From Oscillospiraceae bacterium (GTDB taxonomy: Bacteria; Bacillota; Clostridia; Oscillospirales; Butyricicoccaceae): DNA of 53,441 nt. Numbering within the stretch: the first letter of the stretch is position 1; each line of letters opens with the position of its first letter. This document shows, one piece after another, positions 7,507 to 49,055 of the stretch. The position numbers were made by a program, and so were the translations under genes. Where the stretch lies: the NCBI GenBank assembly GCA_045638565.1, contig JAZUBN010000021.1, positions 1 to 53,441 of the forward strand, given 5' to 3'. A model generated the notes under the pieces. The model was not told the DNA's origin, ran no database searches, and saw nothing but the letters and a program-made list of their open reading frames with translations.

Positions 7507-7537
7507 CGTAGGGACCGACGTCCTCGGTGGTCCGCAG
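7507..7537 (+). repeat. family-B REP-like element
   Basis: CGTAGGGACCGACG-tcct-CGGTGGTCCGCAG. It is nearly identical to 28745-28775 and is followed by the small hairpin GGCAAAC-gaa-GTTTGTCC. Confidence 0.8.
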
Positions 7538-7607
7538 GCAAACGAAGTTTGTCCTTTCGATAAATCACAATCCCATATAAATATAATCAAGAAAGGCGAA
7601 AATCACC

Positions 7608-8858
7608 ATGCAAAAAAGTTTATCCTGTGAAATCCTCGCTGTCGGAACAGAGCTTCTGCTTGGCGAGATAGTCAATACAGATGCCCAGATGCTTTCTCAG
7701 GGCCTTTCCGAGCTGGGCATTTCGGTTTTCCACCACACAGTTGTGGGCGATAATCCTCAGCGCCTCAGCGAAGCTGTTGAAATCGCAAAAAAGAGAGCCG
7801 ATATCATCATCACAACAGGCGGCCTCGGCCCAACAGCCGACGACCTCACAAAGGAAACTATCGCAAAGGCTTTCGGCAAGAAGCTTGAATTGCATCAGCC
7901 TTCCCTTGAACGCCTTTATTCCCGCTGGTCCTTTGGCACAATGACAAAGAACAATGAGCGTCAGGCATGGCTTCCTGAAGGCTGTGAAGTGCTGGTCAAT
8001 GACTGGGGCACAGCTCCGGGCTGCGCTTTTGAAGCAGAGGGCAAGCATGTCATTATGCTCCCTGGCCCACCAAGAGAATGTACAGCTATGTGGCAATACA
8101 GAGCAAAGCCTTATCTTGAAAAGCTGACAGGCGGCGCTATCGTTTCACACTTCATCCGCCTTTACGGCATCGGTGAATCGGCTATGGAAGATAAGATTGC
8201 CTACATTATGGATAATGCTGTCAACCCATCTGCCGCACCTTATGCCAAGGAAGGCGAATGTCTCGTCCGTGTAACTGCAAAGGGCGAAACACACGAGCAG
8301 GCTGAAGAAATGACAAAGCCTCTCATCGAGCAGATTGTGGGCGAGCTTAAGGAATTCGTCTACGGTATCGATGCAAATTCCCTCGAAGAAGTGCTTGTTG
8401 CCCTTCTCAAAGAGAAGAATCTTACAATTTCTACAGCTGAAAGCTGCACAGGCGGCTATATTTCCAAACGAATCACAGATATCGCAGGCTGTTCCGACGT
8501 ATTTATGGGCGGTATGGTGACATACTCCAACGAAAGCAAGATGAAGCTTCTCGGCGTCAAGGCTGAAACTCTGGAAAAGTATGGCGCAGTAAGCGAACAG
8601 ACAGCCTATGAAATGGCTTCCAATGTTGCACGCGTTATGGGTACAGATATCGGTGTCGGTATCACAGGCATCGCAGGTCCGGGCGGCGGCAGCGAAGAAA
8701 AGCCTGTCGGTCTTGTCTATGCAGGTGTCTGCTATAAGGGCGAAACAAAGGTTTATGAACTGCCAAGAAGAAAGAATCAGTCGCGCGAAAGAGTGCGCCT
8801 GCTTGCCTCCTCCAAGGTGCTTGACCTTGTGAGAAGAACAGTTCTCGGCATAGAATAG
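7608..8858 (+). CDS. cinA: competence/damage-inducible protein CinA (MoCF-like domain plus nicotinamide-nucleotide amidohydrolase)
   Basis: 416 aa. N-terminal EILAVGTELLLGEIVNTDA and C-terminal ESCTGG...GIAGPGGG PncC-type motifs. Confidence 0.9.
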   Translation: MQKSLSCEILAVGTELLLGEIVNTDAQMLSQGLSELGISVFHHTVVGDNPQRLSEAVEIAKKRADIIITTGGLGPTADDLTKETIAKAFGKKLELHQPSLERLYSRWSFGTMTKNNERQAWLPEGCEVLVNDWGTAPGCAFEAEGKHVIMLPGPPRECTAMWQYRAKPYLEKLTGGAIVSHFIRLYGIGESAMEDKIAYIMDNAVNPSAAPYAKEGECLVRVTAKGETHEQAEEMTKPLIEQIVGELKEFVYGIDANSLEEVLVALLKEKNLTISTAESCTGGYISKRITDIAGCSDVFMGGMVTYSNESKMKLLGVKAETLEKYGAVSEQTAYEMASNVARVMGTDIGVGITGIAGPGGGSEEKPVGLVYAGVCYKGETKVYELPRRKNQSRERVRLLASSKVLDLVRRTVLGIE

Positions 8859-8920
8859 TATAATATATTGTAAGGGCGGGCTATGTCCCGCCCCTGTGAT
8901 TATAAGCGTATCCTATTTAT

Positions 8921-8988
8921 AAGCCTTCCCCTCGAGGGGAAGGGGGACCGCTTGCGGTGGATGAGGTGTAGACCGAAGGTCGTTTTAT
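8921..8988 (+). repeat. family-A repeat, copy A4
   Basis: AAGCCTTCCCC-tcga-GGGGAAGG, ACCG-cttg-CGGT, GGATGAGGTGTAG, GACC-gaa-GGTC, GTTTTAT. It is preceded by the hairpin GGGCGGG-ctatgt-CCCGCCC at 8874-8893. Confidence 0.8.
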
Positions 8989-9048
8989 CAAATGCATCGC
9001 AGATACATTAATGTTCCTAAGGAACAATTCATTTATAAACTATAACTT

Positions 9049-9077
9049 TTGACAACAATTCAACTTTATATATAAAT
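9049..9077 (+). promoter_or_regulatory. candidate promoter of the walR-like operon
   Basis: TTGACA at 9049-9054, about a 17-nt spacer, then an ATAAAT/TATAAA -10 region. It lies about 20 nt upstream of RBS AGGAGGG. Confidence 0.45.
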
Positions 9078-9098
9078 CTCAGAACAGGAGGGCTATTC

Positions 9099-9782
9099 AT
9101 GCCTAAAAAAGTTCTCATTGTCGAAGATGAAAAAGCCATCTCCGATATCATAATGTTCAATCTCAAACGTGAAGGTTACGAAGTCATGCAGGCGTTGACA
9201 GGCACAGACGGTCTTAATATGGCGCTCAGTGAAAATCCTGACATCGTCCTTCTCGATATAATGCTTCCTGAAATGGACGGCTTCCAGGTGCTTGAAAAAA
9301 TCCGCGAAGTCAGCGAAGTACCTGTGATTATGGTCACAGCTCGTGAAGAAGAGATGGACAAGGTCCTCGGTCTTGAAACAGGGGCGGACGACTATGTTAC
9401 AAAGCCATTTTCAATGGTCGAGCTGATAGCAAGAGTCAAGGCAAACACTCGCCGTCAGGTTGCTCCTGCAAAAAAGGCTGAAACCACAGTCACAATCGGC
9501 GACATCACAATAGATACCGATTCTCAGTCGGTTATGAAAAACAACGAAACTCTCGATCTCACTCAGCGCGAATATGAAATCATGGTCTATTTTGCAAAAA
9601 ATCCAACCAAGGTCATAAGCCGTGAAGAGCTTATGGAAAAGGTGTGGGGCTATGATTATTACGGCGATCTGCGCGCAGTTGACGTTGCTATGCGCCGCCT
9701 TCGTGAAAAAATCGAGGATGACCCATCTGAACCAAAACTCATTATCACAAAGCGAGGCTCAGGCTATTACTTAGGCAAATAA
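9099..9782 (+). CDS. walR: OmpR-family response regulator, WalR/YycF-like
   Basis: 227 aa. Receiver domain LIVEDE...LLDIMLPEMDG, GADDYVTKPFS, and a winged-helix C-terminus. Similarity to Bacillus WalR runs throughout by eye. Confidence 0.85.
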   Translation: MPKKVLIVEDEKAISDIIMFNLKREGYEVMQALTGTDGLNMALSENPDIVLLDIMLPEMDGFQVLEKIREVSEVPVIMVTAREEEMDKVLGLETGADDYVTKPFSMVELIARVKANTRRQVAPAKKAETTVTIGDITIDTDSQSVMKNNETLDLTQREYEIMVYFAKNPTKVISREELMEKVWGYDYYGDLRAVDVAMRRLREKIEDDPSEPKLIITKRGSGYYLGK

Positions 9783-9784
9783 CT

Positions 9785-11329: not shown

Positions 11330-11334
11330 AGCAG

Positions 11335-11402
11335 AGCCTTCCCCTTGAGGGGAAGGTGTCACACTAAGTGTGACGGATGAGGTGCAGCCAAAGGCGTTTT
11401 AT
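11335..11402 (+). repeat. family-A repeat, copy A5
   Basis: AGCCTTCCCC-ttga-GGGGAAGG, GTCACAC-taa-GTGTGAC, GGATGAGGTGCAG, GCC-aaa-GGC, GTTTTAT. It begins 5 nt after the cls stop and lies between cls and the kinase gene. Confidence 0.8.
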
Positions 11403-11454
11403 TCAATGAGCCTTCATATCTTTCAACAAAACCCAAATGAAAAGAGGAAATCCT

Positions 11455-13200: not shown

Positions 13201-13219
13201 TTTTCCCCTATAAAATATC

Positions 13220-13309
13220 GGTAGGGGCGAGCATTGCTCGTCCGTATTTGCAGGGACCGGCGTCTTCGGCAGTCCGCAGAAAAAGCAGGGGACACTGACG
13301 AATGTCCCC
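13220..13309 (+). repeat. three tandem family-B-like hairpin units
   Basis: GGTAGGGGCGAGCA-tt-GCTCGTCC (13220-13244), TGCAGGGACCGGCG-tctt-CGGCAGTCCGCAG (13249-13279) and GCAGGGGACA-ctgacgaa-TGTCCCC (13285-13309), all in the same orientation. Confidence 0.75.
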
Positions 13310-13349
13310 ATATATCATAATAATATAAAACAAATCATAACAAACAATT

Positions 13350-18800: not shown

Positions 18801-18864
18801 AATGTGTTTAAAACCGCGTTATTTAACAAATTATAAAAAACTAAGATAAGTGAGGTGCATGAAT

Positions 18865-20145
18865 TTGAAATTAGAATTAGGTTACATCAAAATCTCCGAC
18901 ATTCAGTTTTCAAATGAATCCAAGGTAGAAAATGGCGTTCTCTACGTAAATCCAGAGGACATCATCAATCTCGTTAAGGAAGACGAAAACATCGCAAGCT
19001 GTACAGTTGATATCGCTCGTCCAGGCGAATCCATTCGTATTACTCCTGTTAAGGACGTTATCGAACCACGTGTTAAGGTTGAAGGCCCAGGCGAAATTTT
19101 CCCAGGCGTTATCGGTAAGGTAAACCGCGTTGGTGAAGGCCGTACACACGTTCTTAAGGGTGCTGCTGTTGTTACAACAGGTAGAATCGTTGGCTTCCAG
19201 GAAGGTATCATCGATATGGTTGGCGAAGGTGCTAAGTACACACCATTCTCCCAGACACTCAACCTCGTTCTCACAATGGAACCAGTTGATGGTCTTCGCC
19301 CACATGAACACGAAAAGGCTCTCCGTTTCGCAGGTCTCAAGACAGCTGTTTTCCTCGGTGAACTCGGCCGCAATGTAGAACCAGACGAAATCGAAACATT
19401 CGAATCCCTCAACGTTAAGGAAGGTATCGAAAAGTATCCTAACCTCCCACGCGTTGCTTACGTTCAGATGCTTCAGTCTCAGGGTCTTATGCATGACACA
19501 TATGTTTACGGTGTTGACGCAAAGCGTACACTCTCCACAATTATCATGCCTACAGAAATTATGGACGGCGCAATCCTCTCCGGTAACTGCGTATCCTCCA
19601 CAGACAAGAACACAACTTACCACCACCTTAACAACCCAGTTATCCACGACTTGTTCAAGGCTCACGGTAAGACACTCAACTTTGCTGGTATGATCATCAC
19701 AAACGAAAACGTTTACCTTGCTGACAAGGAACGTTCTTCTGACTGGGCTTCCAAGCTCTGCCAGTACCTCGGCGTTGACGGTGCTATCGTATCTCAGGAA
19801 GGCTTCGGTAACCCAGATACAGACCTTATCATGAATGCTAAGAAGATCGAAATGGTTGGCGTTAAGACTGTTATCATCACAGACGAATACGCAGGCCGTG
19901 ACGGTAGATCCCAGTCCCTCGCTGACGCAGACCCACTTGCAAACGCAGTAGTAACTGGTGGTAACGCAAACATGGTTATCCACCTTCCAAAGCTCGACAA
20001 GGTTATCGGTCATATCAACTTTGTTGACACAATCGCTGGTGGCTTCGATGGTTCCCTCCACGAAGATGGCACAATCGAATGTGAAGTACAGATCATCACA
20101 GGTGCTACAAACGAACTCGGCTTTAGCAAGCTGTCCGCAAGATAA
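18865..20145 (+). CDS. grdE: glycine reductase complex protein B, GrdE proprotein (alpha/beta subunits)
   Basis: LKLELGYIKISDIQFSNESKVENGVLYVN... is typical of the GrdE N-terminus. A putative self-cleavage Asn-Cys (SGN|C) lies at nt 19585-19590. A TTG start at 18865 has RBS GAGGTG at 7-nt spacing. ATG 18859 and GTG 18850 are alternatives. Confidence 0.88.
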   Translation: MKLELGYIKISDIQFSNESKVENGVLYVNPEDIINLVKEDENIASCTVDIARPGESIRITPVKDVIEPRVKVEGPGEIFPGVIGKVNRVGEGRTHVLKGAAVVTTGRIVGFQEGIIDMVGEGAKYTPFSQTLNLVLTMEPVDGLRPHEHEKALRFAGLKTAVFLGELGRNVEPDEIETFESLNVKEGIEKYPNLPRVAYVQMLQSQGLMHDTYVYGVDAKRTLSTIIMPTEIMDGAILSGNCVSSTDKNTTYHHLNNPVIHDLFKAHGKTLNFAGMIITNENVYLADKERSSDWASKLCQYLGVDGAIVSQEGFGNPDTDLIMNAKKIEMVGVKTVIITDEYAGRDGRSQSLADADPLANAVVTGGNANMVIHLPKLDKVIGHINFVDTIAGGFDGSLHEDGTIECEVQIITGATNELGFSKLSAR

Positions 20146-20163
20146 TTAAGGAGGTCACAATTA

Positions 20164-21489
20164 ATGGGAAAAATTAGAGTTGTACATTATGTCAACCAGT
20201 TCTTCGCAGGTATTGGTGGCGAAGAAAAGGCTGACCAGGTAGCGTTCAAGCAGGACGGTACTATGCCTATCGGTTCTCAGATCGAAAAGGCAATGCAGGC
20301 TATTAACGCAGATGTAGAAATCGTTGGTACAATCGTATGCGGCGACTCCTACTTCAATGAAAATCTCGAGAAGGCTAAGGCTGACATTCTCGAAATGGTA
20401 AAGAGCTATGAACCAGACCTCTTCATTGCAGGTCCAGCATTTAACGCAGGTCGTTACGGTGTTGCTTGTGGTACTATCACAGTAGAAGTTCAGGAACAGC
20501 TCAACATTCCTGTTCTCACAGGTATGTATAAGGAAAACCCAGGTGCTGATATGTACAAGACAAAGGTATATATCGTTCCTACAAAGGACTCCGCAGCTGG
20601 TGCTCGTGACGCTATCAAGAAGATGGCTCCTCTCGCTGTTAAGCTCGCAACAGGCCAGGAAATCCTCGCTTCTTGCGTAGATAACTATATGCCAAACGGT
20701 ATCCGTAAGAACTTCTTCGAAACAAAGCGTGGTTCTGAACGTGCTGTTGAAATGATGATCAAGAAGCTCGCTGGTAAGGAATTTGTTACAGAATTCCCAA
20801 TGCCTGACTTCGACCGTGTAGATCCAAACCCAGCTGTTAAGGATATGTCCAAGGCTCGTGTTGCTCTCGTTACATCCGGTGGTGTTGTTCCAAAGGGTAA
20901 CCCAGACCGTATCGAATCCTCTTCTGCTTCCAAGTACGGCGAATACTCCATCGCAGAATTCGACGATCTCACAGAAGAAACACACGAAACAGCTCACGGT
21001 GGTTACGACCCAGTTTACTGTAACCAGGACTCCGACCGCGTTCTTCCAGTTGACGTTCTTCGTGAAATGGAAAAGGCTGGCCGTATCGGTAAGCTCCACG
21101 AATACTTCTACACAACAACAGGTAACGGTACTGCTGTTCTTAACTCTGTTGCATTTGCTAAGGAATACTCCCAGAAGCTCGTTGCAGCAGGCGTAGACGC
21201 TGTAGTTCTCACTTCCACCTGAGGCACATGTACAAGATGCGGTGCATCTATGGTTAAGGAAATCGAACGCGCTGGTATCCCAGTTGTTCACATCTGCACA
21301 GTTACACCAATCTCCATGACAGTTGGTGCTAACAGAATCGTTCCAGCTATTGCTATCCCTCATCCACTCGGTAACCCAGCTCTCTCTATGGAAGAAGAAA
21401 AGGTTATCCGTCGTAAGATTGTTGAAACTGCTCTTCAGGCTCTCGAAACAGAAGTTGACAAGCAGACAATCTTCGAAGTTAAGTATTAA
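20164..21489 (+). CDS. grdB: glycine reductase selenoprotein B (Sec at codon 353, UGA 21220-21222)
   Basis: Track ORFs 20164-21222 and 21250-21489 are in the same frame. The junction reads VVLTST-UGA-GTCTRCGASMVKE, the canonical GrdB selenocysteine motif. RBS AAGGAGG. Confidence 0.93.
21235..21249 (+). promoter_or_regulatory. candidate SECIS apical hairpin for grdB
   Basis: AGATGC-GGT-GCATCT is a 6-bp stem with G and U in the loop, beginning 13 nt after the UGA. This spacing and loop type match bacterial SECIS elements. I could only see a weak lower stem. Confidence 0.55.
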
Positions 21490-21509
21490 TATTACAAACC
21501 ACTATATTG

Positions 21510-21540
21510 CAGACAGGGCTAACTGTGTTAGCCCAGTCTG
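21510..21540 (+). other. intercistronic stem-loop between grdB and trxB
   Basis: CAGACAGGGCTAAC-tgt-GTTAGCCCAGTCTG is a 14-bp stem with one mismatch and no T-run. Possibly an RNA processing or stability element or a partial terminator. Confidence 0.55.
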
Positions 21541-21571
21541 TGTGTAATTCAATTATAGGAGATTACAAAAA

Positions 21572-22510
21572 ATGAGCAAGATTTATGACGTAATCGTTCT
21601 CGGCGCAGGCCCTGCTGGCCTCGCTGCTGGTCTTTACGCTGGCAGATCCCGTCTTTCCGTACTCATCATTGAAAAGGGTCAGGACGGCGGTCAGATCGCT
21701 ATCACAGACGAAATCGAAAACTACCCAGGTCAGGTAGAAGGCGATTCCGGCCCATCCCTCATCGCTCGTATGACAGAACAGGCTAAGCACTTCGGTGCAG
21801 AACGTGTTTCTGACCTCATCAAGAGCGTAGAACTCGAAGGCGACGTTAAGAAGCTCGTTGGTGCTAAGGGCGAATACCTCGGCAAGACAGTTATCGTTGC
21901 TACAGGCGCTTTCCCTAAGCCAATCGGCTGTGAAAACGAAGGCAAGTTCGTTGGTAAGGGTATTTCCTTCTGCGCAACATGTGACGCTGCATTCTTCGAA
22001 GATTTCGAAGTATTCGTAGTTGGTGGTGGTGACTCTGCTGTTGAAGAAGCTATGTACCTCACAAAGTTCGCACGTAAGGTTACAATCATCCACAGACGTG
22101 ACCAGCTCCGTGCTGCTAAGTCCATCCAGGAAAAGGCATTCAAGAATCCAAAGATCGAATTCATGTGGGATACAGTTGTTGAACGCGTTGAAGGCGATGA
22201 AATGCTCGAAGCTATGATCGTTAAGAATGTTAAGACAGGCGAAACAAAGCGTATCGAAGCTGACGAAGAAGATGGTATCTTCGGTCTCTTCGGCTTTATC
22301 GGCTACAATCCTAACTCTTCCCTCTTCGAAGGCATTCTCGATATGGAATACGGTTACATCAAGACAGATGACAACATGCACACAAACATCGAAGGTGTTT
22401 ATGCTGCTGGTGACATCCGTGTTAAGAGCCTTCGCCAGGTTGTTACAGCTGCTGCTGACGGCGCTATCGCTGCTATGCAGGCTGAACACTACCTTGCAAA
22501 CAAGGAATAA
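21572..22510 (+). CDS. trxB: thioredoxin-disulfide reductase
   Basis: 312 aa. VIVLGAGPAGLAAG (FAD), redox CATCD, GGGDSAVEEA (NADPH). Confidence 0.93.
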   Translation: MSKIYDVIVLGAGPAGLAAGLYAGRSRLSVLIIEKGQDGGQIAITDEIENYPGQVEGDSGPSLIARMTEQAKHFGAERVSDLIKSVELEGDVKKLVGAKGEYLGKTVIVATGAFPKPIGCENEGKFVGKGISFCATCDAAFFEDFEVFVVGGGDSAVEEAMYLTKFARKVTIIHRRDQLRAAKSIQEKAFKNPKIEFMWDTVVERVEGDEMLEAMIVKNVKTGETKRIEADEEDGIFGLFGFIGYNPNSSLFEGILDMEYGYIKTDDNMHTNIEGVYAAGDIRVKSLRQVVTAAADGAIAAMQAEHYLANKE

Positions 22511-22554
22511 TTTCCTTTTTAATTAACAAATAATATTCAAGGAGGACACTAACT

Positions 22555-22878
22555 ATGTCTATGCTCGAACTCGATAAGAACACTTTTGAACCAGAAGTTC
22601 TCAACGCTGAAGGTAAGGTATTCGTAGACTTCTATGGCGACGGTTGCGTTCCATGTAAGGCTCTTATGCCATTCGTTCACGAATGCGCTGAAAAGTATCA
22701 TGAACACATGAAGTTCTGTGCTCTCAATACAACAGCTGCACGTCGTCTCGCTATTAAGCAGGGTATCATGGGTCTCCCAGTTCTCGCTATCTACGAAGGC
22801 GGCAAGATGATCGCTTCCTGCGTTAAGGATGACGCTACAGAAGAAAACATCGAAAACATGATCAAGGCTCACATCTAA
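22555..22878 (+). CDS. trxA: thioredoxin, glycine-reductase type (GCVPC active site)
   Basis: 107 aa. FYGDGCVPCKALMP replaces the usual WCGPC. This matches what I recall for thioredoxins of glycine-reductase systems. Confidence 0.88.
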   Translation: MSMLELDKNTFEPEVLNAEGKVFVDFYGDGCVPCKALMPFVHECAEKYHEHMKFCALNTTAARRLAIKQGIMGLPVLAIYEGGKMIASCVKDDATEENIENMIKAHI

Positions 22879-23007
22879 TTATATTAGATTAAAGCATATT
22901 ATCAAACTTTTATCGTGTAAAACCGCTTTGGTAGGGCGGATTTACAAGTGTACCTCACGTGCACTATAAAAAATTCTACAAATAAATCGAAGAAGGAGGA
23001 TTTTACC

Positions 23008-23478
23008 ATGAGCTTGTTAGAAGGCAAGAAGGTAATCATTATCGGCGATAGAGACGGTATTCCAGGCGACGCTATTGCTGAATGTGCTACAAGCGCTGGT
23101 GCGGAAGTAATCTACTCCTCAACGGAGTGCTTCGTCTGAACAGCTGCTGGTGCAATGGACTTGGAAAATCAGAAGAGAGTTAAGGAATTCACAGAAGAAT
23201 TCGGTGGCGAGAACATCGTTGTTCTCCTCGGTGCTGCTGAAGGTGAAGCATCCGGCCTTGCTGCTGAAACAGTAACAGCTGGCGACCCTACATTTGCTGG
23301 TCCATTGACAGGAGTCTCGTTGGGACTCAAGGTTTACCATGTTTGCGAACCTGAAATTAAGGAACTTATTGCTGAAGACGTTTACGAAGAACAGATTTCT
23401 ATGATGGAAATGGTTCTCGACGTTGATGATATCATCAGCGAAATGACAGCTATCCGCGACGAGTTCTGCAAGTACTAA
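23008..23478 (+). CDS. grdA: glycine reductase selenoprotein A (Sec at codon 44, UGA 23137-23139)
   Basis: [20 protein letters not shown]...[20 protein letters not shown]. Track ORFs 22948-23139 and 23155-23478 are in the same frame. Real start is ATG 23008 with RBS GAAGGAGGA. Confidence 0.95.
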
Positions 23479-23495
23479 TTTTTGTGGAATTACCC

Positions 23496-23531
23496 CTTAA
23501 AGTGATATGGCCTCGGCCATATCACTTTAAG
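23496..23531 (+). other. very stable stem-loop directly after grdA
   Basis: CTTAAAGTGATATGGCC-tc-GGCCATATCACTTTAAG is a perfect 17-nt inverted repeat with no adjacent T-run. A weaker hairpin, AAAGCTAT-N9-ATAGCTTT plus a T-rich tail, follows at 23554-23585. Confidence 0.65.
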
Positions 23532-23651
23532 CCATATTTGGGGTTAATAGATAAAAGCTATTGAAATATGATAGCTTTATTTGCATATCTAATAATTTTA
23601 ATAGCTTTTCTGTATTAATTTACAAATTTTATTTTATGGAGGAAAACTTCA

Positions 23652-25190
23652 ATGAATAGCGTAGTAAAAGGCACTGGCTATATCCTGGTTCACACACCAG
23701 ATATGATCATCCGCAATGGTACAACTCAGACAACAGAAATGATTGTTAACCCTGGTTCCGAATACCTCAAGGAACTCCCAAATCATATCAGAACATATGA
23801 TCAGGCTGTTAACTACTATCCAAACCAGACATACATCGGCAACATGACTCCTGCTGAACTCGCAGCAATCCCAACACCTTGGTACGATAAGCCAATGGAA
23901 AATGCTCCACGTTACGGTAAGTTTGGTGAAATTATGCCAGAAGCAGAATTCTACATCCTTATGCAGACATGTGACGTATTTGACCTTATGCGTCTCCACA
24001 AGGACTTCGTTGCTGAACACATCGAAGCTTTCAAGGCTAACCCAATCATCGACGAAACAATCGTTGCACGCGTTCACGCTGGCGTTGAACAGGACGAAAT
24101 CGAACATTTCGTAAACGACGAACACGCTGAAGGCATCTACTTCAACGACAAGCTCGTTGGTTACCTCAAGAGAGCTCACGACGTTGACGTTAACCTCTCT
24201 GCACACGTTATGCTCGAAAACATCGTTTCCAAGGCTTCCTCCGTTCTCGCAACACTTTACGCTGTTCAGAACGCAGGCATCAACAAGGAAGATGTTGACT
24301 ACATCATCGACTGCTGTGAAGAAGCTTGCGGCGATATGAATCAGCGCGGCGGCGGTAACTTCGCTAAGGCAACTGCTGAAATCGCAGGTCTCGTAAATGC
24401 TTCCGGTTCCGACGTTCGTGGCTTCTGCGCAGGTCCAGCTCACGCTATCGTTGACGCTGCTTCCCTCGTAAAGTCCGGCGCATTCAAGTGCGTAATCGTT
24501 TCCGCTGGTGGCTGCACAGCTAAGCTCGGTATGAACGGTAAGGACCACGTTAAGAAGGGTCTCCCAATCCTCGAAGACGTTCTCGGTGGCTTTGCTATCG
24601 TTATCACAGAAAATGACGGCGAATCTGCTGAAATCAACCTCGACATCCTCGGCAAGCACTCTGTTGGTACAGGCTCTGCTCCACAGAAGGTTATCTCTGC
24701 TCTCGTAACATCCGGTCTCGAAAAGGCTGGCCTCAAGATCACAGATATCGACAAGTACTCCCCAGAAATGCAGAACCCAGACGTTACAGTTCCAGCAGGC
24801 GCAGGTGACGTTCCACTCGGCAACTACAAGATGATCGCTGCTCTCGCTGTTAAGAATGGCGAAATCGACAAGAAGGATCTTGCTACATTCCCAGCTAAGC
24901 ACGGTATGATGGGTTGGGCTCCAACACAGGGTCATATTCCATCTGGCGTTCCATACATTGGCTTCGCTCGTGAAGAAATCATGAGAGGCGAAATCAAGAA
25001 GGCTATGATCATCGGTAAGGGTTCTCTCTTCCTCGGCCGTATGACAAACCTCTTCGACGGTATGTCTTTCGTTATGCAGACAAATACATCTGCTGAAGCT
25101 CAGCAGGCTGCAGGCGTATCCGAAGACGAAGTAAAGGTACTTATCGGTAAGGCTCTTAAGGAATTCGCAGCTAACCTCATCGCTGAATAA
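23652..25190 (+). CDS. grdC: glycine reductase complex protein C, beta subunit
   Basis: 512 aa. The N-terminus MNSVVKGTGYILVHTPDMIIRNGTTQT and its length and position match GrdC. RBS GGAGGA. Confidence 0.88.
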   Translation: MNSVVKGTGYILVHTPDMIIRNGTTQTTEMIVNPGSEYLKELPNHIRTYDQAVNYYPNQTYIGNMTPAELAAIPTPWYDKPMENAPRYGKFGEIMPEAEFYILMQTCDVFDLMRLHKDFVAEHIEAFKANPIIDETIVARVHAGVEQDEIEHFVNDEHAEGIYFNDKLVGYLKRAHDVDVNLSAHVMLENIVSKASSVLATLYAVQNAGINKEDVDYIIDCCEEACGDMNQRGGGNFAKATAEIAGLVNASGSDVRGFCAGPAHAIVDAASLVKSGAFKCVIVSAGGCTAKLGMNGKDHVKKGLPILEDVLGGFAIVITENDGESAEINLDILGKHSVGTGSAPQKVISALVTSGLEKAGLKITDIDKYSPEMQNPDVTVPAGAGDVPLGNYKMIAALAVKNGEIDKKDLATFPAKHGMMGWAPTQGHIPSGVPYIGFAREEIMRGEIKKAMIIGKGSLFLGRMTNLFDGMSFVMQTNTSAEAQQAAGVSEDEVKVLIGKALKEFAANLIAE

Positions 25191-25204
25191 GGGGGACGCT
25201 AACA

Positions 25205-26359
25205 ATGTCTATTGAAAAAATCATTGCTAAGACTTTCGAAGAACTCGGCGAAGGTCTTATCTCCGGCAACTTCGGCTCCAAGCCAAAGATTGCTATTACA
25301 GGTATGGGTTCCGAACTCGGCGAAGAAAACGCAATGGCTGGCGCAGTTATGGCTGCAAAGCAGGGCGTAGACGTTTACTTCATCGGTACTCTTACACACC
25401 CACTCGTTAAGACTGTTGCAGTTAAGGACGAAGAAGAAGGCCACAAGAAGATGGAAGAACTCGTTGAAACAGGCGCAGTTGATGGCGCAGTTACAATGCA
25501 CTTCCCATTCCCAATCGGCGTTTCTACAGTAGGCCGCGTTGTTACACCTGCTAAGGGTAAGGAAATGTTCGTTGCTACAACAACAGGTACATCTTCCTCC
25601 GACCGTATCGAAGGTATGATCAAGAACGCTATCTACGGTATCATCGCTGCTAAGGCTACAGGCATCGAAAACCCAACAGTTGGTATCCTCAACGTTGACG
25701 GTGCTCGTCAGACAGAAATCGCTCTCAAGAAGCTCCAGGAAAATGGCTACCCAATCACATTCGCAACATCCGGTCGTTCCGACGGCGGCTGCGTAATGCG
25801 TGGTAACGACGTTCTCATGGCTTCTCCAGACGTTATGGTAACAGACTCCCTCACAGGTAATATCCTCATGAAGCTCATGAGCTCCTTCACAACAGGCGGC
25901 TCCTTCGAAGCTACAGGTTACGGCTACGGCCCTGGTATCGGTGAAGGTTATGACAAGATGATCCTCATCGTTTCCCGTGCTTCCGGTGCTCCAGTTATCG
26001 CTGGCGCTCTCAAGTATGCTGCTGAACTCGCAAAGAACAAGTTCTTCCAGGTAGCAGCAAACGAATTTGCACTTGCTAACAAGGCAGGTCTCAAGAAGCT
26101 TCTCGAAGAAAGAAAGGCAGCAGCTAAGCCAGCTGCAGCTGAAGCTGAAGAAGTTAAGGCTCCACCAACAGAAATCGTAACAGCTCAGATCCCAGGTGTT
26201 GAAATCATGGACCTCGAAGACGCTGTTAAGGTTGTCTGGAAGGAAGGCGTATACGCTCAGAGCGGTATGGGCTGCACAGGTCCTATCATCCTCGTTTCCG
26301 AAGCTAACCTCGAAAAGGCAAGAGAAATCCTCAAGAAGGCTGGCTACATCCAGGAATAA
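25205..26359 (+). CDS. grdD: glycine reductase complex protein C, alpha subunit
   Basis: 384 aa and PlsX-like. It directly follows grdC. RBS AGGGGGA. Confidence 0.88.
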   Translation: MSIEKIIAKTFEELGEGLISGNFGSKPKIAITGMGSELGEENAMAGAVMAAKQGVDVYFIGTLTHPLVKTVAVKDEEEGHKKMEELVETGAVDGAVTMHFPFPIGVSTVGRVVTPAKGKEMFVATTTGTSSSDRIEGMIKNAIYGIIAAKATGIENPTVGILNVDGARQTEIALKKLQENGYPITFATSGRSDGGCVMRGNDVLMASPDVMVTDSLTGNILMKLMSSFTTGGSFEATGYGYGPGIGEGYDKMILIVSRASGAPVIAGALKYAAELAKNKFFQVAANEFALANKAGLKKLLEERKAAAKPAAAEAEEVKAPPTEIVTAQIPGVEIMDLEDAVKVVWKEGVYAQSGMGCTGPIILVSEANLEKAREILKKAGYIQE

Positions 26360-26370
26360 TTTAATTGCAT

Positions 26371-26399
26371 AAAGGGCAAAGCAATCCTTTGCCCTTTTG
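26371..26399 (+). terminator. rho-independent terminator after grdD
   Basis: AAAGGGCAAAG-caatc-CTTTGCCCTTTT. Confidence 0.8.
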
Positions 26400-26448
26400 C
26401 AGGTTATTACATTACTATATAAAAATATAAAAAGGGGAAGCAAATAAA

Positions 26449-27291
26449 ATGTACAAGATTTTGCGTCGTGAAGACCTTAATGAACAGGTCGTACTGATGG
26501 AAATTGAAGCTCCTATCGTTGCAAAGAAGTGCAAGGCAGGCCAGTTCATTATCCTCCGCGTAAACGAAGAAGGCGAAAGAATCCCACTCACAGTTGCTGA
26601 TTACGACCGTGAAAAGGGCACAGTTACTATCATCTTCCAGATCGTTGGTAAGACAACTAAGATCCTCTCTGAAAAGAAGCAGGGCGAATACATCCAGGAC
26701 TTCGTAGGTCCTCTCGGTAAGGCATCTGAAATCGAAGGCAAGAAGGTTGCTATCATCGGTGGTGGTCTCGGCTGTGCTATCGCATATCCACAGGCTAAGG
26801 CATTCCACGAAGCAGGCGTAGAAGTTGACCTCATCGCTGGCTTCCGTAACAAGGACTTCGTTATCCTTGAAGAAGAAATGAAGGCTGCATGTAACAGACT
26901 CCACATCGTAACAGATGACGGTTCCTACATTGAAAAGGCTCTCGTTACAAATAAGCTCGAACAGCTCATCAACGAAGGCAACGAATACGATCTCGTTATC
27001 GCTATCGGTCCACTCGTAATGATGAAGTTCGTATGTCTCCTCACAAAGAAGTACAACCTCAAGACTATCGTTTCCATGAACCCAATCATGATCGATGGTA
27101 CAGGTATGTGCGGCTGCTGCCGTGTAACAGTTGGCGGCGAAACAAAGTTCGCTTGCGTTGACGGCCCAGACTTCGATGGCCACCTCATCGACTTTGATGA
27201 AGTTATCCGTCGTTCCAGAATGTACTCCATCGAAGAACGTCAGTCTATGGAAGATCACAAGCACAAGTGTAATTTGGAGGGTATGAACTAA
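26449..27291 (+). CDS. nfnA: sulfide/dihydroorotate dehydrogenase-like FAD/NAD-binding protein (NfnA-type small subunit)
   Basis: 280 aa. FNR-like fold motifs RIPLTVADYD and GGGLGCA. C-terminal 2Fe-2S cluster motif GTGMCGCCRV...CVDGP. Confidence 0.8.
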   Translation: MYKILRREDLNEQVVLMEIEAPIVAKKCKAGQFIILRVNEEGERIPLTVADYDREKGTVTIIFQIVGKTTKILSEKKQGEYIQDFVGPLGKASEIEGKKVAIIGGGLGCAIAYPQAKAFHEAGVEVDLIAGFRNKDFVILEEEMKAACNRLHIVTDDGSYIEKALVTNKLEQLINEGNEYDLVIAIGPLVMMKFVCLLTKKYNLKTIVSMNPIMIDGTGMCGCCRVTVGGETKFACVDGPDFDGHLIDFDEVIRRSRMYSIEERQSMEDHKHKCNLEGMN

Positions 27292-28673
27292 TGGCTAATA
27301 TGTCTCTTACAAAATTGCCAATGCCTGAACAGGATCCATTGGTACGTAACAAAAACTTTGAAGAAGTTGCTCTCGGCTACACAGCTGAAATGGCTATGGA
27401 AGAAGCTACACGTTGCCTCAACTGTAAGCACAAGCCATGCGTAAGCGGTTGCCCAGTTAATGTTAAGATCCCAGAATTCATCGCTAAGGTTGCTGAAGGT
27501 AAGTTCGTAGAAGCTTACGAAATTATCTCCGAAACATCTGCTCTCCCAGCAGTTTGCGGCCGTGTTTGCCCACAGGAATCCCAGTGTGAAGGCAAGTGTA
27601 TCCGTGGCGTTAAGGGCGAACCAGTTGCTATCGGTCGTCTCGAACGTTTCGTTGCTGACTACGTAATGGTAAACGGCGGCGCTAAGGTTACAAAGGCTGA
27701 ACCAAACGGCCATAAGGTTGCTGTTCTCGGTGCTGGCCCTGCAGGTCTCACAGCTGCTGGTGACCTTGCTCGTATGGGTTACGATGTAACAATCTTCGAA
27801 GCATTCCACAAGGCTGGTGGCGTTCTCGTTTACGGTATCCCACAGTTCCGTCTTCCTAAGGAAATCGTTCAGAAGGAAGTTGACAAGCTTATCGAAATGG
27901 GCGTTAAGGTTGAACTCAACGTTCTCGGTGGTAAGGCTATCACAGTTCAGGAACTCTTCGAAATGGGCTTTGAATCTGTATTCGTAGGTACAGGTGCTGG
28001 TCTCCCAATCTTCATGAACATCCCAGGCGAATCCCTTAACGGTGTTTACTCCGCTAACGAATTCCTCACACGTATCAACCTCATGAAGGCTTACAAGCCA
28101 GAATACGACACACCAACTAAGTACCATAAGGTAGTTGCTGTTGTTGGTGGCGGTAACGTTGCAATGGACGCAGCTCGCTGCGCAAAGCGTCTCGGCGCTG
28201 AAGTTCACGTTATCTACCGTCGTGGCATGGAAGAAATGCCTGCACGTGCTGAAGAAGTTCACCACGCTATCGAAGAAGAAGTTATCTTCGATACACTCTG
28301 CAACCCAGTTCAGATCCTCGGTGACGAAAACGGCGTTGTTAACGGCGTAGAATGCATCCGTATGGAACTCGGCGAACCAGACGAAAGAGGCCGCCGTCGT
28401 CCAATCGAAATCCCAGGCTCCAACTTCGTTCTCCCAGTAGACGCAGTTATTATGTCCCTCGGTACAAACCCTAACCCAATCATGAAGGACAACACACCTG
28501 GTCTCGAAACAAACAAGAAGGGCTGCATCGTAGCTAACGAAGATGGTCTCACATCTATCGAAGGCGTTTACGCTGGCGGCGACGCAGTAACAGGTGCTGC
28601 TACAGTTATCCTCGCTATGGGTGCTGGTAAGACAGCTGCTGCTGCTATCCACGAATACATCTCCAAGAAGTAA
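27291..28673 (+). CDS. nfnB: NADPH-dependent glutamate synthase-like oxidoreductase (NfnB-type large subunit)
   Basis: 460 aa. Cys clusters CLNCKHKPCVSGCPV and CGRVCPQESQCEGKC. Two dinucleotide folds, VLGAGPAGL and VVGGGNVAMD. The start overlaps the nfnA stop (TAATG). Confidence 0.82.
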   Translation: MANMSLTKLPMPEQDPLVRNKNFEEVALGYTAEMAMEEATRCLNCKHKPCVSGCPVNVKIPEFIAKVAEGKFVEAYEIISETSALPAVCGRVCPQESQCEGKCIRGVKGEPVAIGRLERFVADYVMVNGGAKVTKAEPNGHKVAVLGAGPAGLTAAGDLARMGYDVTIFEAFHKAGGVLVYGIPQFRLPKEIVQKEVDKLIEMGVKVELNVLGGKAITVQELFEMGFESVFVGTGAGLPIFMNIPGESLNGVYSANEFLTRINLMKAYKPEYDTPTKYHKVVAVVGGGNVAMDAARCAKRLGAEVHVIYRRGMEEMPARAEEVHHAIEEEVIFDTLCNPVQILGDENGVVNGVECIRMELGEPDERGRRRPIEIPGSNFVLPVDAVIMSLGTNPNPIMKDNTPGLETNKKGCIVANEDGLTSIEGVYAGGDAVTGAATVILAMGAGKTAAAAIHEYISKK

Positions 28674-28703: not shown

Positions 28704-28734
28704 AAGGACTCTCCGTAAGGAGAGTCCTTTTTGT
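28704..28734 (+). terminator. rho-independent terminator after nfnB
   Basis: AAGGACTCTCC-gtaa-GGAGAGTCCTT followed by TTTTG. Confidence 0.85.
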
Positions 28735-28744: not shown

Positions 28745-28775
28745 TGTAGGGACCGACGTCCTCGGCGGTCCGCAG
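28745..28775 (+). repeat. family-B REP-like element
   Basis: TGTAGGGACCGACG-tcct-CGGCGGTCCGCAG. Confidence 0.8.
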
Positions 28776-28790: not shown

Positions 28791-28819
28791 TGTAGGGTGC
28801 GGCGCCCTCGACGCACCGC
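28791..28819 (+). repeat. family-B REP-like element
   Basis: TGTAGGGTGCG-gcgccctcga-CGCACCGC. Confidence 0.8.
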
Positions 28820-29651: not shown

Positions 29652-29702
29652 TGTAGGGGAGGCGTTTCGCCTCCCGCGGGCGGGGTGACCCCGCACCTAC
29701 AG
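29652..29702. repeat. pair of family-B units in opposite orientation sharing CCGCGG
   Basis: The forward unit is TGTAGGGGAGGCG-ttt-CGCCTCCCGCGG. The reverse complement of 29674-29702 reads CTGTAGGTGCGGGG-tca-CCCCGCCCGCGG. The pair therefore has TGTAGG...CCTACA ends. Confidence 0.75.
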
Positions 29703-32657: not shown

Positions 32658-32682
32658 TGTAGGGGCGACCATTGGTCGTCCG
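32658..32682 (+). repeat. family-B REP-like element
   Basis: TGTAGGGGCGACCA-tt-GGTCGTCCG. Identical in core to 42961-42985. It lies in an intergenic region transcribed only from the minus strand. Confidence 0.8.
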
Positions 32683-35571: not shown

Positions 35572-35600
35572 ATAAAAATCTCTTCCATTTCCCACATCCT

Positions 35601-35651
35601 GCCTCCCCTTGTCAGGGGAGGGGGACCATCGGAACTATGGTGGAAGGGTAG
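35601..35651 (+). repeat. family-A repeat, copy A6 (CCTCCCC subtype)
   Basis: GCCTCCCC-ttgtca-GGGGAGG, ACCAT-cggaact-ATGGT, tail GGAAGGGTAG. Confidence 0.75.
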
Positions 35652-40940: not shown

Positions 40941-40955
40941 ACTTAATCGCTCCTC

Positions 40956-41003
40956 GCCTCCCTATGATGAGGGAGGGGGGCCGCACTGCGGTGGAGGGAG
41001 AGA
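40956..41003 (+). repeat. family-A repeat, copy A7 (CCTCCCT subtype)
   Basis: GCCTCCCT-atgatg-AGGGAGG, CCGC-act-GCGG, tail GGAGGGAGAG. It begins 15 nt after the permease stop. Confidence 0.8.
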
Positions 41004-41056
41004 TAGTATCCCTTTAATATACTCCAAAATTTATCACTAAACCGGAGGAAATATAA

Positions 41057-42921: not shown

Positions 42922-42950
42922 AAAAGACCATCCGAAATGGATGGTCTTTT
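42922..42950. terminator. bidirectional terminator between convergent genes
   Basis: AAAAGACCATCC-gaaa-TGGATGGTCTTTT. Confidence 0.8.
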
Positions 42951-42960: not shown

Positions 42961-42988
42961 TGTAGGGGCGACCATTGGTCGTCCGCGG
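42961..42988 (+). repeat. family-B REP-like element
   Basis: TGTAGGGGCGACCA-tt-GGTCGTCCGCGG. Confidence 0.8.
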
Positions 42989-43874: not shown

Positions 43875-43905
43875 TGTAGGGTACGGCGCCCTCGATGTGC
43901 CGCAG
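43875..43905 (+). repeat. family-B REP-like element
   Basis: TGTAGGGTAC-ggcgccctcgat-GTGCCGCAG. The stem contains a T:G position. It lies in a minus-only transcribed spacer. Confidence 0.75.
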
Positions 43906-43928
43906 CTATTTATTAATTTTTAGCTATA

Positions 43929-43957: not shown

Positions 43958-43961
43958 AATT

Positions 43962-44615: not shown

Positions 44616-46099
<1,484 letters not shown>

Positions 46100-46127
46100 T
46101 TAGTTTATTTGACTTATTATTCCCATA

Positions 46128-46156
46128 AATATAGCACAATTTAAACTTAATGTCAA
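46128..46156 (-). promoter_or_regulatory. candidate guaB promoter (TTGACA-17-TATATT, TG extended -10)
   Basis: The reverse complement shows TTGACA (46156-46151), a 17-nt spacer ending in TGc, and TATATT (46133-46128). Confidence 0.55.
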
Positions 46157-46223
46157 CAAAAAATCACAAAATTTTCCGATGAAATAGCTGTAAAAATATG
46201 CTATAATATTAGTATGATACTGA

Positions 46224-46278
46224 AGCCTTTCCCCATAGGGGAAGGGGGACCACCTCTGGTGGTGGATGAGGCGTAATC
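46224..46278 (+). repeat. family-A repeat, copy A8
   Basis: AGCCTTTCCCC-ata-GGGGAAGG, ACCACC-tct-GGTGGT, tail GGATGAGGCG. It lies in the divergent guaB/ogg spacer. Confidence 0.8.
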
Positions 46279-46359
46279 ATTCTTAAAATTGTATGTCATT
46301 CTGAACGAATGTGAAGAATCTCATACGCTTACTTATAACTTAACTTACACGAGGTGCTT

Positions 46360-47175: not shown

Positions 47176-47213
47176 TTATGCAATGGCATTATGCTCGTCC
47201 GCACAATGCTTAT

Positions 47214-48050: not shown

Positions 48051-48203
48051 ATTACCTCCGAAGAGCACTTTTCTGTGCCCTATAAATATACATTATAATT
48101 ATAACACAAAATATTTGAAATTTCAATAAATTGACACCACTTTAACGCAGTTGAAAAGCTATATATAATATGGTATAATAAGTTAAAATAAAATGAAATT
48201 TAT

Positions 48204-48232
48204 TGTAGGGGACGGCGCACTCGACGTCCCGG
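48204..48232 (+). repeat. family-B REP-like element
   Basis: TGTAGGGGACG-gcgcactcga-CGTCCCGG. Confidence 0.8.
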
Positions 48233-48279
48233 GTTATCAATAGCGAAATTAATAATTTATCATACAAAGGAGAACTACT

Positions 48280-48924
48280 ATGAAGATACTCATCACAGGT
48301 TTTGAACCATTCGGCGGCGAAAGCATCAATCCATCATGGGAAGCTGTAAAGCTCCTTCCAGATTCCATCGACGGTCACGAAGTTGTAAGAAAAATGCTCC
48401 CTTGCGTATTTGTCAAGGCAGGCGACGTGCTTGATGCACTTATCGAAGAACATAAGCCTGATTTTGTTTTCTGCGTAGGTCACGCAGGCGGCAGAGCAAA
48501 TCTCACTGTCGAAAAGGTTGGCATCAATCTTATGGACGGCAGAATTGCCGACAACGAAGGCTATCAGCCTGTCGACGAGCCAATCAAGGCTGATGGCGAA
48601 ACAGCATACTTCTCCAATCTTCCTGTCAAGGGCGTTGTAAACGCAATCCGTGAAGCAGGCATTCCTGCTTCTGTTTCCTATACAGCAGGTACATACGTAT
48701 GCAACTATATTCTCTATACAACAATGTATCTCATCAATAAGAAGTACCCAAATATCAAGGGTGGCTTTATGCACATCCCATTTGCTCCTGAACAGGCTGT
48801 AACAAAGTCCCCAAGCACACCAACAATGCCTATCCCAATGATCGCAGACGGCATCAAGGCAGCGGCTAAGTTTATCCTTACAAACAGCGAAGAACTCAAG
48901 GTAAACGAAGGCACAGAACACTAA
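48280..48924 (+). CDS. pcp: pyroglutamyl-peptidase I
   Basis: 214 aa. KILITGFEPFGGESINPSWEA, and Cys/His in GTYVCNY...MHIP. Confidence 0.92.
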   Translation: MKILITGFEPFGGESINPSWEAVKLLPDSIDGHEVVRKMLPCVFVKAGDVLDALIEEHKPDFVFCVGHAGGRANLTVEKVGINLMDGRIADNEGYQPVDEPIKADGETAYFSNLPVKGVVNAIREAGIPASVSYTAGTYVCNYILYTTMYLINKKYPNIKGGFMHIPFAPEQAVTKSPSTPTMPIPMIADGIKAAAKFILTNSEELKVNEGTEH

Positions 48925-48934
48925 TTCAAATATA

Positions 48935-49000
48935 AAGCCTTCCCCTTGAGGGGAAGGTGTTAGCAAAGCTGACGGATGAGGTGTAGCCGAAGGCGTTTAT
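48935..49000 (+). repeat. family-A repeat, copy A9
   Basis: AAGCCTTCCCC-ttga-GGGGAAGG, GTTAGC-aaa-GCTGAC, GGATGAGGTGTAG, GCC-gaa-GGC, GTTTAT. It begins 10 nt after the pcp stop. Confidence 0.8.
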
Positions 49001-49029
49001 TAAATAGTGCCACAGGCACCTTACGTCAA

Positions 49030-49055
49030 TGTAGGGGAGCCGCTTGCTGCTCCCG
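49030..49055 (+). repeat. family-B REP-like element
   Basis: TGTAGGGGAGC-cgcttgct-GCTCCCG. It lies 30 nt after copy A9, the same A-then-B arrangement as at 7449-7537. Confidence 0.8.

Follow-up and report, generated by a model that had tools for sequence, protein, structure and literature searches.

The 53 441-nucleotide contig JAZUBN010000021.1 of an Oscillospiraceae bacterium, referred to here as the window, contains 14 short hairpin units, designated family B, that begin with GTAG or a close variant of it. REPs, or repetitive extragenic palindromic sequences, are small repeated DNA hairpins that are known mainly from proteobacteria. We consider it probable that the family B units are GTAG-tagged REPs, the single-stranded DNA (ssDNA) substrates of an enzyme resembling RAYTs (REP-associated tyrosine transposases) that is encoded elsewhere in the genome. 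An earlier note on this DNA had claimed that the units have the layout of classical REPs. This claim is supported by the GTAG on the 5' side of the foot of a GC-rich hairpin, the extragenic location, the repetition, the covarying arms, and the link to a RAYT-like gene in related genomes.

The family B units and their folding

The window letters were read again at the 12 positions given in the earlier note, and all of them are correct. The heads are also as described, (T)GTAGGG or, at 13249 and 13285, GCAGGG, each followed by a GC-rich hairpin. The arm pairs GCGACCA/TGGTCGT, GCGAGCA/TGCTCGT, GGTGCG/CGCACC, GGGACG/CGTCCC, GGGAGC/GCTCCC, and GGGAGGCG/CGCCTCCC are exact, as are the tails, CCGCAG at 7507, 13249, 28745, and 43875, and CCGCGG at 29652, its partner, and 42961. 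The inverted partner of 29652, TGTAGGTGCGGGGTCACCCCGCCCG, was confirmed on the minus strand at 29677–29702. One further unit, with a GTAA head, was found at 8869–8895. Family B thus totals 14 units in the 53-kb window, about one per 4 kb, with 13 on the plus strand and only the partner of 29652 on the minus strand. GTAG lies directly at the hairpin foot in 11 units (10 on the plus strand, and the inverted partner), while GCAG is found in two and GTAA in one. The head expected of a REP, GT[AG]G at 0–2 nt on the 5' side of the hairpin foot, is therefore present in the family.

The units are about 25–31 nt long and have the general form Y-GTAG-GG[stem]-loop-[stem]CC-G. They fall into two classes. 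The long-loop class, at 7507, 13249, 28745, 28791, 43875, and 48204, folds with a 6-bp outer stem, a purine–purine mismatch, 2 more bp, and a 4-nt loop. Its consensus is GTAGGG-NN-CG-R-CG-YCCT-CG-R-CG-NN-CCG, with a sub-class of the form GTAGGG-NN-CGRCGYCCTCGRCG-NN-CCG, and the NN pairs vary among copies while their complementarity is kept. The short-loop class, at 13220, 32658, 42961, 29652 with its partner, and 49030, has a near-perfect 8-bp stem and a 3–4-nt loop. With 8–9 bp in the stems and 3–4 nt in the loops, these hairpins have the stem expected of a REP, which is GC-rich, with complementary arms, and either at least 7 bp with a short loop or longer with an internal irregularity.

The GTAGGG hexamer alone is weakly enriched in the window, with 17 observed and 9.9 expected. 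For GTAGG with a hairpin of at least 7 bp immediately after it, the window has 10 occurrences on the plus strand and one on the minus strand, whereas 300 dinucleotide-preserving shuffles gave 0.27 ± 0.53 for both strands together, with a maximum of 3. The long-loop and short-loop patterns match the window 5 and 3 times, and neither matched in 100 shuffles each. The earlier note would have abandoned its reading had there been no excess over shuffled sequence; at the scale of the window the excess is 11 observed vs 0.27 expected, and a chance origin of the units is excluded.

With DNA energy parameters, the plus strands of the window units fold at −5 to −10 kcal·mol−1. The unit at 7507, for example, folds at −7.2 kcal·mol−1 with a 6-bp stem, a mismatch, 2 bp, and a 4-nt loop, and that at 8869 folds at −8.9 kcal·mol−1 with a perfect 7-bp stem. 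The plus-strand fold is the more stable of the two in 13 of the 14 units. A G·T wobble in the three GCGASC copies is present on the plus strand only, and among 296 unique units there are 26 G·T and 5 A·C wobbles (p = 2e-4, an optimistic value, since many of the G·T cases may descend from one short-loop subfamily and the events are not fully independent). This excess of G·T over A·C indicates that the GTAG-bearing strand is the strand whose fold is preserved.

Distribution and covariation in other genomes

The long-loop search pattern GTAGGGNNCGRCGYNCTCGRYGNNCC, in which four stem positions and one loop position were left free, was scanned over genomes, one per species, and at least 120 stretches matched. 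The statements in this paragraph hold among the matches listed. Nearly all come from Oscillospirales-type Clostridia, and the carriers include Ruminococcus flavefaciens, Gemmiger formicilis, Acutalibacteraceae, Faecousia, Monoglobus, and many metagenome-assembled genomes (MAGs) of Oscillospiraceae; the best nucleotide matches to the window are 64–67% identical. Both free pairs are Watson–Crick in 141 of 143 copies, with eight pair types, where chance would give about 1 in 16. The finding that the hairpin arms differ between copies and stay complementary, made in the window by the earlier note, thus extends to other genomes. At the free loop position, 138 of the 140 unique copies have C; YY precedes GTAG, and a G follows the stem in 123 of the 140. 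Outside YY-GTAG...CC-G, the flanks of these copies are random, showing that the repeat is the hairpin alone, about 29 nt. Conservation of the core CGRCGYCCTCGRCG and of the loop extends over many genera. The matches in L028, L071, L090, and L118 lie in MAGs labelled Bacteroides, Muribaculaceae, or Kiritimatiellaeota, which could be due to mis-binning or horizontal transfer.

Both classes of REP are also found in viral or prophage contigs of the IMG/VR collection (L137–L254 and L257–L288). Of the 149 matches to the long-loop pattern, in 118 stretches, 143 have both free pairs Watson–Crick. The short-loop pattern gave 39 viral or prophage stretches, and the free S..S positions are complementary in all 34 unique matches. 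The two classes occur together on several contigs. Inverted pairs contain about half of the units found in other genomes. The single intergenic units there are co-oriented with the majority gene strand in 58 cases vs 33 (p = 0.011). A tally of REPs inside open reading frames (ORFs) of other genomes was judged unreliable, because GC-rich genomes yield long spurious ORFs.

Turnover of the units between sister strains

Metagenome contigs that encode flanking proteins identical to those of the window, such as ThiI and MscL, were taken as sister strains. Contigs L001–L010 encode a ThiI identical to that of the window, and their thiI–cinA spacer is entirely different. In the window, this spacer holds one REP and an element of family A, a second hairpin repeat that is described below. 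Two different REPs, GTAGGGCGGGGGCTTGCTCCCGCCG and GTAGGGGACGGCATTTATGACGTCCCGG, occupy the spacer in eight contigs, and two contigs have family A with a different hairpin array. The spacer between cinA and the response-regulator gene has a short-loop REP in other strains where the window has family A, and the stem of this REP alternates among strains, by a G–C to C–G swap, between GAGC/GCTC and GACC/GGTC. The histidine-kinase spacer contains three units in the window vs family-A-type sequence in L001 and L003, and L131, with an identical MscL, has a family-A-like element in place of unit 32658. The comparison of sister-strain spacers for presence or absence of units that the earlier note had proposed thus reveals both replacement and presence/absence polymorphism in several spacers. 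Exact-protein look-ups found no identical pcp product, nitroreductase, GltA-like protein, or HAD hydrolase on record, and so gave no further sister spacers. Near-identical metagenome strains that differ in the REP content of the same spacer could serve as natural experiments on the gain and loss of REPs.

Orientation and genomic context in the window

The strands of the genes in the window were fixed by Pfam-supported gene calls, with about 37 genes on the plus strand and 13 on the minus strand (about 74% on plus). By the same calls, all 14 units are intergenic, so that they are not parts of conserved coding sequence, an outcome that the earlier note had allowed for. Thirteen of the 14 units are on the plus strand (p = 0.002). 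Minus-strand genes adjoin units at 5 of the 10 sites (29652 with its partner, 32658, 42961, 43875, and 48204), and apart from the partner of 29652 the units at these sites are still on the plus strand. Units 28745 and 28791 lie between the terminators at 28704–28729 (plus) and 28861–28838 (minus), which form a convergent pair; 42961 follows the terminator at 42922–42950, and 32658 follows the mscL terminator. None of the 14 units is followed by the run of T that marks a Rho-independent terminator. The plus orientation next to minus-strand genes, the location past terminators, and the lack of a T-run show that the orientation tracks the DNA strand and not transcription. The units are a DNA-level feature rather than an RNA-level one. 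When the window was scanned with Rfam at gathering thresholds, the sole matches were a T-box and a SECIS element, with none at the units, which therefore belong to no known RNA family.

Rho-independent terminators were considered as candidates for the units and rejected, as terminator and promoter scans call none of the units a terminator and separate true terminators adjoin them. The units resemble such terminators in being intergenic GC-rich hairpins that are often near gene 3' ends, but differ in having no T-run and in their gene-independent orientation.

These results bear on the possibility that the units are host-selected structural signals, that is, mRNA 3'-end stabilisers, weak terminators or attenuators, or sites for nucleoid or other DNA-binding proteins, which are kept by selection and do not move. 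The conservation of the core and the loop across genera would fit such signals, as would the position of many units just 3' of genes, and unit 48204 would fall in the 5' untranslated region of pcp. However, the orientation of the units is indifferent to the direction of transcription; several of them lie where little transcription is expected, past true terminators or between convergent terminators, and neither the lack of a T-run nor the lack of an Rfam match favors this explanation. Furthermore, immobile signals are hard to reconcile with spacers between genes for identical proteins that hold different units or none. We regard it as unlikely that the units are signals of this kind. A host signal role would nevertheless be compatible with a REP origin, as a secondary role, since the REPs of Escherichia coli have host structural-signal roles too.

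The RAYT-like enzyme

A protein of 160–185 amino acids with an HUH...YIxxNP arrangement is encoded in 6 of the at least 120 pattern-selected genome stretches, in eight copies, three of them in L023. RAYT-like genes that carry in-frame REPs are located at 4144–4653 of L013, 3264–3743 and 762–1334 of L023, 5366–5920 of L100, 3114–3626 of L104, 417–875 of L129, 1829–2326 of L132, and 10001–10498 of L255. The three gene copies of L023 lie within 8 kb, and one is degenerate. The motifs are HUH (PNHIHxL; PDHIHLI) and YIxxNP (YIENNP), so the protein has what is expected of a RAYT: the HUH motif, one catalytic Tyr set within YxxxNP, and an IS200-like fold. It matches the NCBIfam model NF047646, 'REP-associated tyrosine transposase' (REP_Tyr_transpos), with E = 1e-14 to 1e-16.

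The sole sequence match of the protein in the PDB is 4ER8, the TnpA_REP of E. coli. An AlphaFold model (pLDDT, the predicted local distance difference test, 75; pTM, the predicted template-modelling score, 0.71) also has 4ER8 as its top Foldseek match, with E = 4e-7 and a template-modelling (TM) score of 0.57, and IS200/IS605 transposases come next. In the alignment with 4ER8, IFQRSYYDHVIRN is opposite IWQPRFWEHAIRN, and Q, D/E-H, and R are kept as a conserved Q...DH..R. In E. coli TnpA_REP, the Q, acidic-H, and R positions contact GTAG (PMC6006769). Judged by sequence, the associated protein appears to be a divergent RAYT relative that lies outside the curated equivalog. Its family comprises 2309 protein clusters at E ≤ 1e-5; among the cluster labels, one is named RayT by JGI, and one NCBI member is a 'hypothetical protein'.

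The RAYT-like gene is flanked by REPs in the three loci that were examined. In L255, there are two REPs upstream of the gene, two inside it, and one, truncated, after its stop codon, which is 4–5 REPs within 600 bp vs one in the other 20 kb. In L132, REPs flank the gene, and a 'double-foot' REP (GTAG...CTAC) lies directly 3' of the stop codon. The long-loop class is thus physically associated with a RAYT-like gene in related genomes. The short-loop REPs are tied to the enzyme by their shared architecture and their co-occurrence on the same contigs. A control set of viral contigs picked out by the long-loop pattern, 1.09 Mb in all, contains no RAYT-like gene. The abundant RAYT-like clusters P0032 and P0100 were traced to other samples and not to the lineage of the window. 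In one lineage (L132 1010–2326; also L133), the RAYT-like gene follows rplQ (ribosomal protein L17) immediately downstream, and a decayed, partial copy of the RAYT-like gene lies between the two.

The units could also be substrates or relics of another hairpin system, such as the ends of IS200/IS605 elements, another HUH nuclease, or a miniature inverted-repeat transposable element, with the match to the RAYT-like gene being coincidental. This explanation gains from the IS200/IS605 transposases being the next-best fold matches and from no enzyme having been found in the window. It is opposed by TnpA_REP itself being the best match of the associated protein in both sequence and fold, and by the clustering of REPs in and around the RAYT-like gene in several unrelated genomes; moreover, the flanks of the units are unconserved beyond about 29 nt and have neither inverted-repeat ends nor left and right ends of the insertion sequence type. 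Another hairpin system as the source of the units is quite improbable.

REPs inside the RAYT-like gene

When the eight RAYT-like genes are read as DNA, every one of them contains one sense and one antisense REP, in frame and at the same two positions. It is because each gene carries these two in-frame REPs that the pattern search caught the genes. The sense REP lies 5' of the HUH motif and encodes, for example, VGGGALDAP. The antisense REP, whose encoded peptide is, for example, GTSRAPSPT, is found between the HUH and Tyr motifs. The in-gene stems vary (GGGC, GTGC, GGCC, GGAC, GGTC) with complementarity kept, and the paired changes swap two amino acids together, as in VGGGALDAP to VGDGVLDVP. 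Of the 120 closest homologues, 114 retain the peptide of the first REP (VGGGA.DAP). In the AlphaFold model, the two REP peptides form a β-hairpin loop (residues 40–47) and a disordered loop (residues 95–103), and the second peptide corresponds to a gap in 4ER8.

The fixed positions in all eight genes and the retention of the first peptide make the in-gene REPs look ancestral rather than sporadic insertions, and the compensatory stem changes that alter two residues at once make the pair look selected. We tentatively raise the possibility, which we hold to be less likely than not, that the in-gene pair bracketing the HUH segment is a built-in part of the system and not an accidental insertion. 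The pair could be a master or regulatory site of the enzyme, acting in autoregulation, in self-processing, or as a protected template that reseeds the intergenic REPs. If this is true, a built-in pair would account for the REP core that is shared across Oscillospirales genera.

The in-gene REPs also raise the question of whether the intergenic units are merely debris of decayed RAYT-like genes, since the same 26-nt sequence is present in that ORF; unit 28791 is identical to an in-frame copy in L023, where it encodes VGCGALDAP, and in L132 a partial, decayed copy of the gene, REPs included, lies upstream of the intact one, but the units show no similarity to the gene past the hairpin, their flanks are random, tblastn of the window finds nothing, one unit per about 4 kb is far too dense, and the short-loop classes are absent from the gene, so that this origin is very improbable.

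Proposed mechanism

We propose that a RAYT/TnpA_REP-like HUH enzyme with a single catalytic tyrosine recognises the GTAG-footed hairpin and cleaves it. By analogy with the known enzymes, the enzyme would bind the folded single strand, read GTAG, and cut and rejoin ssDNA (PMC8266576, PMC6006769). Such cutting and rejoining would copy, replace, and remove REPs in the intergenic spacers, and the enzyme would act preferentially on the strand that is exposed as the lagging-strand template. An active strand on the lagging-strand template is the preference of the TnpA_REP/IS200/IS605 class of enzymes (PMC8266576, PMC6006769), and a preference of this kind would explain the shared orientation of nearly all copies. 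With about three-quarters of the genes on the plus strand, this strand probably has the leading-strand sequence, that is, it is probably the lagging-strand template. The mode of REP spread in general is still unclear (PMC8266576).

Several observations weigh against the proposal that the family B units are REPs served by a RAYT-like enzyme. A tblastn search with the RAYT-like proteins finds no such gene in the 53-kb window, as the earlier note had stated, or in the sister-strain contigs. The scores of the RAYT-like proteins fall short of the cut-offs of both NF047646 (53–61 bits vs 80) and Pfam Y1_Tnp, PF01797 (17–22.6 bits vs 23), and the link to the enzyme is seen for the long-loop class only. 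The GC skew in the window is weak, and the direction of replication is that suggested by the gene-strand bias only. No clean empty site was found among the sister-strain spacers compared, and an insertion target could therefore not be defined. Finally, the conservation of the core across genera is unusual for REPs and could reflect a host function.

Relation to known systems

The closest comparison is with the REPs and bacterial interspersed mosaic elements (BIMEs) of E. coli and their TnpA_REP (4ER8). Both systems have a 5' GTAG at the foot of an imperfect GC-rich extragenic palindrome, a conserved irregularity that interrupts the stem, and a small HUH single-tyrosine protein of the same fold, with REPs around its gene as in a REPtron. 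However, BIMEs are doublets, whereas the window units are mostly single and in one orientation, and the host here is a Firmicute (Oscillospirales). Classical REPs are species-specific. Unlike those of E. coli, family B has a core that is common to many genera, and its RAYT-like protein is below the curated cut-offs of the hidden Markov models. An extragenic, repeated GC-rich hairpin whose foot carries GTAG on its 5' side is the layout by which REPs are defined in Quentin et al. 2018 (PMC6006769) and in Di Nocera et al. 2013 (PMC3733652).

Family B also resembles the system of TnpA_REP subclass 2.4 (PMC6006769) by its described traits. That subclass has long REPs with a stem foot of consecutive G–C pairs (a GGG foot here), 'double-foot' GTAG...CTAC REPs (here directly after the L132 gene), and frame-keeping REPs inside tnpA_REP, one of them between the HUH and Tyr motifs. 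The difference is that the in-gene REPs are here at fixed positions in all eight genes. Subclass 2.4 is described as abundant among Cyanobacteria and Bacteroidetes, and Firmicutes are not discussed (PMC6006769).

In the IS200/IS605 elements IS608 and ISDra2, subterminal ssDNA hairpins are recognised by a Y1 HUH enzyme, and the lagging-strand-template bias expected for these elements fits the one-way orientation of family B. Unlike these elements, family B has no transposase between its hairpins and no left and right ends, and its unit is only about 29 nt. In the REP doublets of Pseudomonas that form hairpins (REPINs), copying is thought to be performed by a single-copy, domesticated Y1 transposase. 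The REPIN–RAYT system (Bertels and Rainey) resembles family B in its short GTAG-type hairpin repeats and in the occurrence of inverted doublets, but 12 of the 14 window units are singlets. A REPIN is an inverted REP pair that acts as a mobile unit; the window has one doublet (29652/29702), and the doublet does not look like the dominant unit there.

The statement in the earlier note that elements of this kind are poorly characterised in Clostridia agrees with the literature searched, where the GTAG-repeat survey and the RAYT papers hardly touch Firmicutes. The GTAG repeats in the survey of Di Nocera et al. (PMC3733652) are only from Proteobacteria, Cyanobacteria, Chloroflexi, and the PVC group. 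Firmicutes are unmentioned by Nunvar 2010 and Corneloup 2021, and Bertels 2017 remarks only that RAYT group 1 occurs in Clostridia. A search for literature joining REP, RAYT, or REPIN with Clostridia or Oscillospirales found no description of these elements. We thus found no earlier description for Firmicutes, although the kind of element is itself already known. Work on REPs and RAYTs has so far been almost only in Proteobacteria, with some in Cyanobacteria and Bacteroidetes. A large cross-genus REP family, together with a matching RAYT-like family whose 2309 clusters are mostly unannotated, extends the system to abundant Firmicutes of the gut and rumen. Two of its features stand out: the REP core is conserved from genus to genus, and the enzyme gene holds an in-frame REP pair at fixed positions. 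The REP hairpins and other intergenic elements in these genomes probably break assemblies and create spurious small ORFs.

Individual units in the window

The long-loop REP at 7507–7537 (plus), CGTAGGGACCGACGTCCTCGGTGGTCCGCAG, is an exact match to the cross-genome pattern and is located in the thiI–cinA spacer, directly after a family A element. The GTAA-headed REP-like unit at 8869–8895 (plus), TGTAAGGGCGGGCTATGTCCCGCCC, is just 3' of the cinA stop codon and is identical in contigs L001–L010. Three units follow 3' of the histidine-kinase gene in its spacer. The first, at 13220–13244 (plus), GGTAGGGGCGAGCATTGCTCGTCCG, is a short-loop REP that matches the short-loop pattern, has the G·T wobble on the plus strand, and differs in its stem, GAGC/GCTC, from 32658 and 42961, which have GACC/GGTC. 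The second, at 13249–13279 (plus), TGCAGGGACCGGCGTCTTCGGCAGTCCGCAG, has a GCAG head and two stem mismatches, belongs to repeat family D13, and appears to be a decayed copy of a long-loop REP. The third, at 13285–13310 (plus), GCAGGGGACACTGACGAATGTCCCC, has a GCAG head and a real 7-bp hairpin with an 8-nt loop; both head and loop are atypical, no match to it was found elsewhere, and its membership in family B is doubtful.

The long-loop REPs at 28745–28775 (plus), between the two convergent terminators, and 28791–28819 (plus), GTAGGGTGCGGCGCCCTCGACGCACCG, were both identified by pattern match and DNA fold. The sole inverted doublet of the window consists of the short-loop REP at 29652–29676 (plus), TGTAGGGGAGGCGTTTCGCCTCCCG, with a perfect 8-bp stem, as its left half, and the partner at 29677–29702 (minus), which lies tail to tail against it and was identified by its DNA fold. 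The short-loop REP at 32658–32682 (plus) lies between the mscL terminator and the start of lamB and is antisense to both of these minus-strand genes, and that at 42961–42987 (plus) lies after the terminator of an SLH-protein gene, between convergent genes. The long-loop REP at 43875–43905 (plus) is between two minus-strand genes, for a nitroreductase and a HAD hydrolase. The one at 48204–48233 (plus) has a promoter-like site upstream of it, at 48151–48179, and is in the divergent promoter region that separates a GNAT gene from pcp. The REP at 49030–49055 (plus), TGTAGGGGAGCCGCTTGCTGCTCCCG, lies after a family A element and before an FMN-reductase gene. In addition, CATTATGCTCGTCCGCA at 47190–47205 resembles the 3' half of a short-loop REP (..CATTGCTCGTCCG) with the GTAG half missing, and may be a remnant.

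Other elements of the window

Family A is a composite hairpin repeat made up of GCCTTCCCC-TTGA-GGGGAAGG, another variable hairpin, GGATGAGGTGTAG, and a mini hairpin. It occurs in the window at 70–115, 1532–1665, 7448–7500, 8922–8985, 11335–11400, 35600–35645, 40950–41005, 46224–46275, 48936–48995, and 50105–50160. Family A is polymorphic among the sister strains; the element at 11335 is present in the window and not in L001 and L003, possibly with a duplication of AGCCTT. The 3' module of family A is GTAG with a short hairpin, and a relationship of family A with the REP system is possible. Arrays of variable short hairpins spaced by the heptamer AATTCAT are found at 3258–3470 of L001, 3264–3480 of L009, and 9003–9040 of the window, in spacers that hold REPs in other strains.

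The region of the window at 18850–28673 is a glycine/sarcosine/betaine reductase cluster, with a SECIS element at 21223–21260 in grdB. A T-box leader is located at 52667–52900, upstream of an apparent tyrosyl-tRNA synthetase gene.

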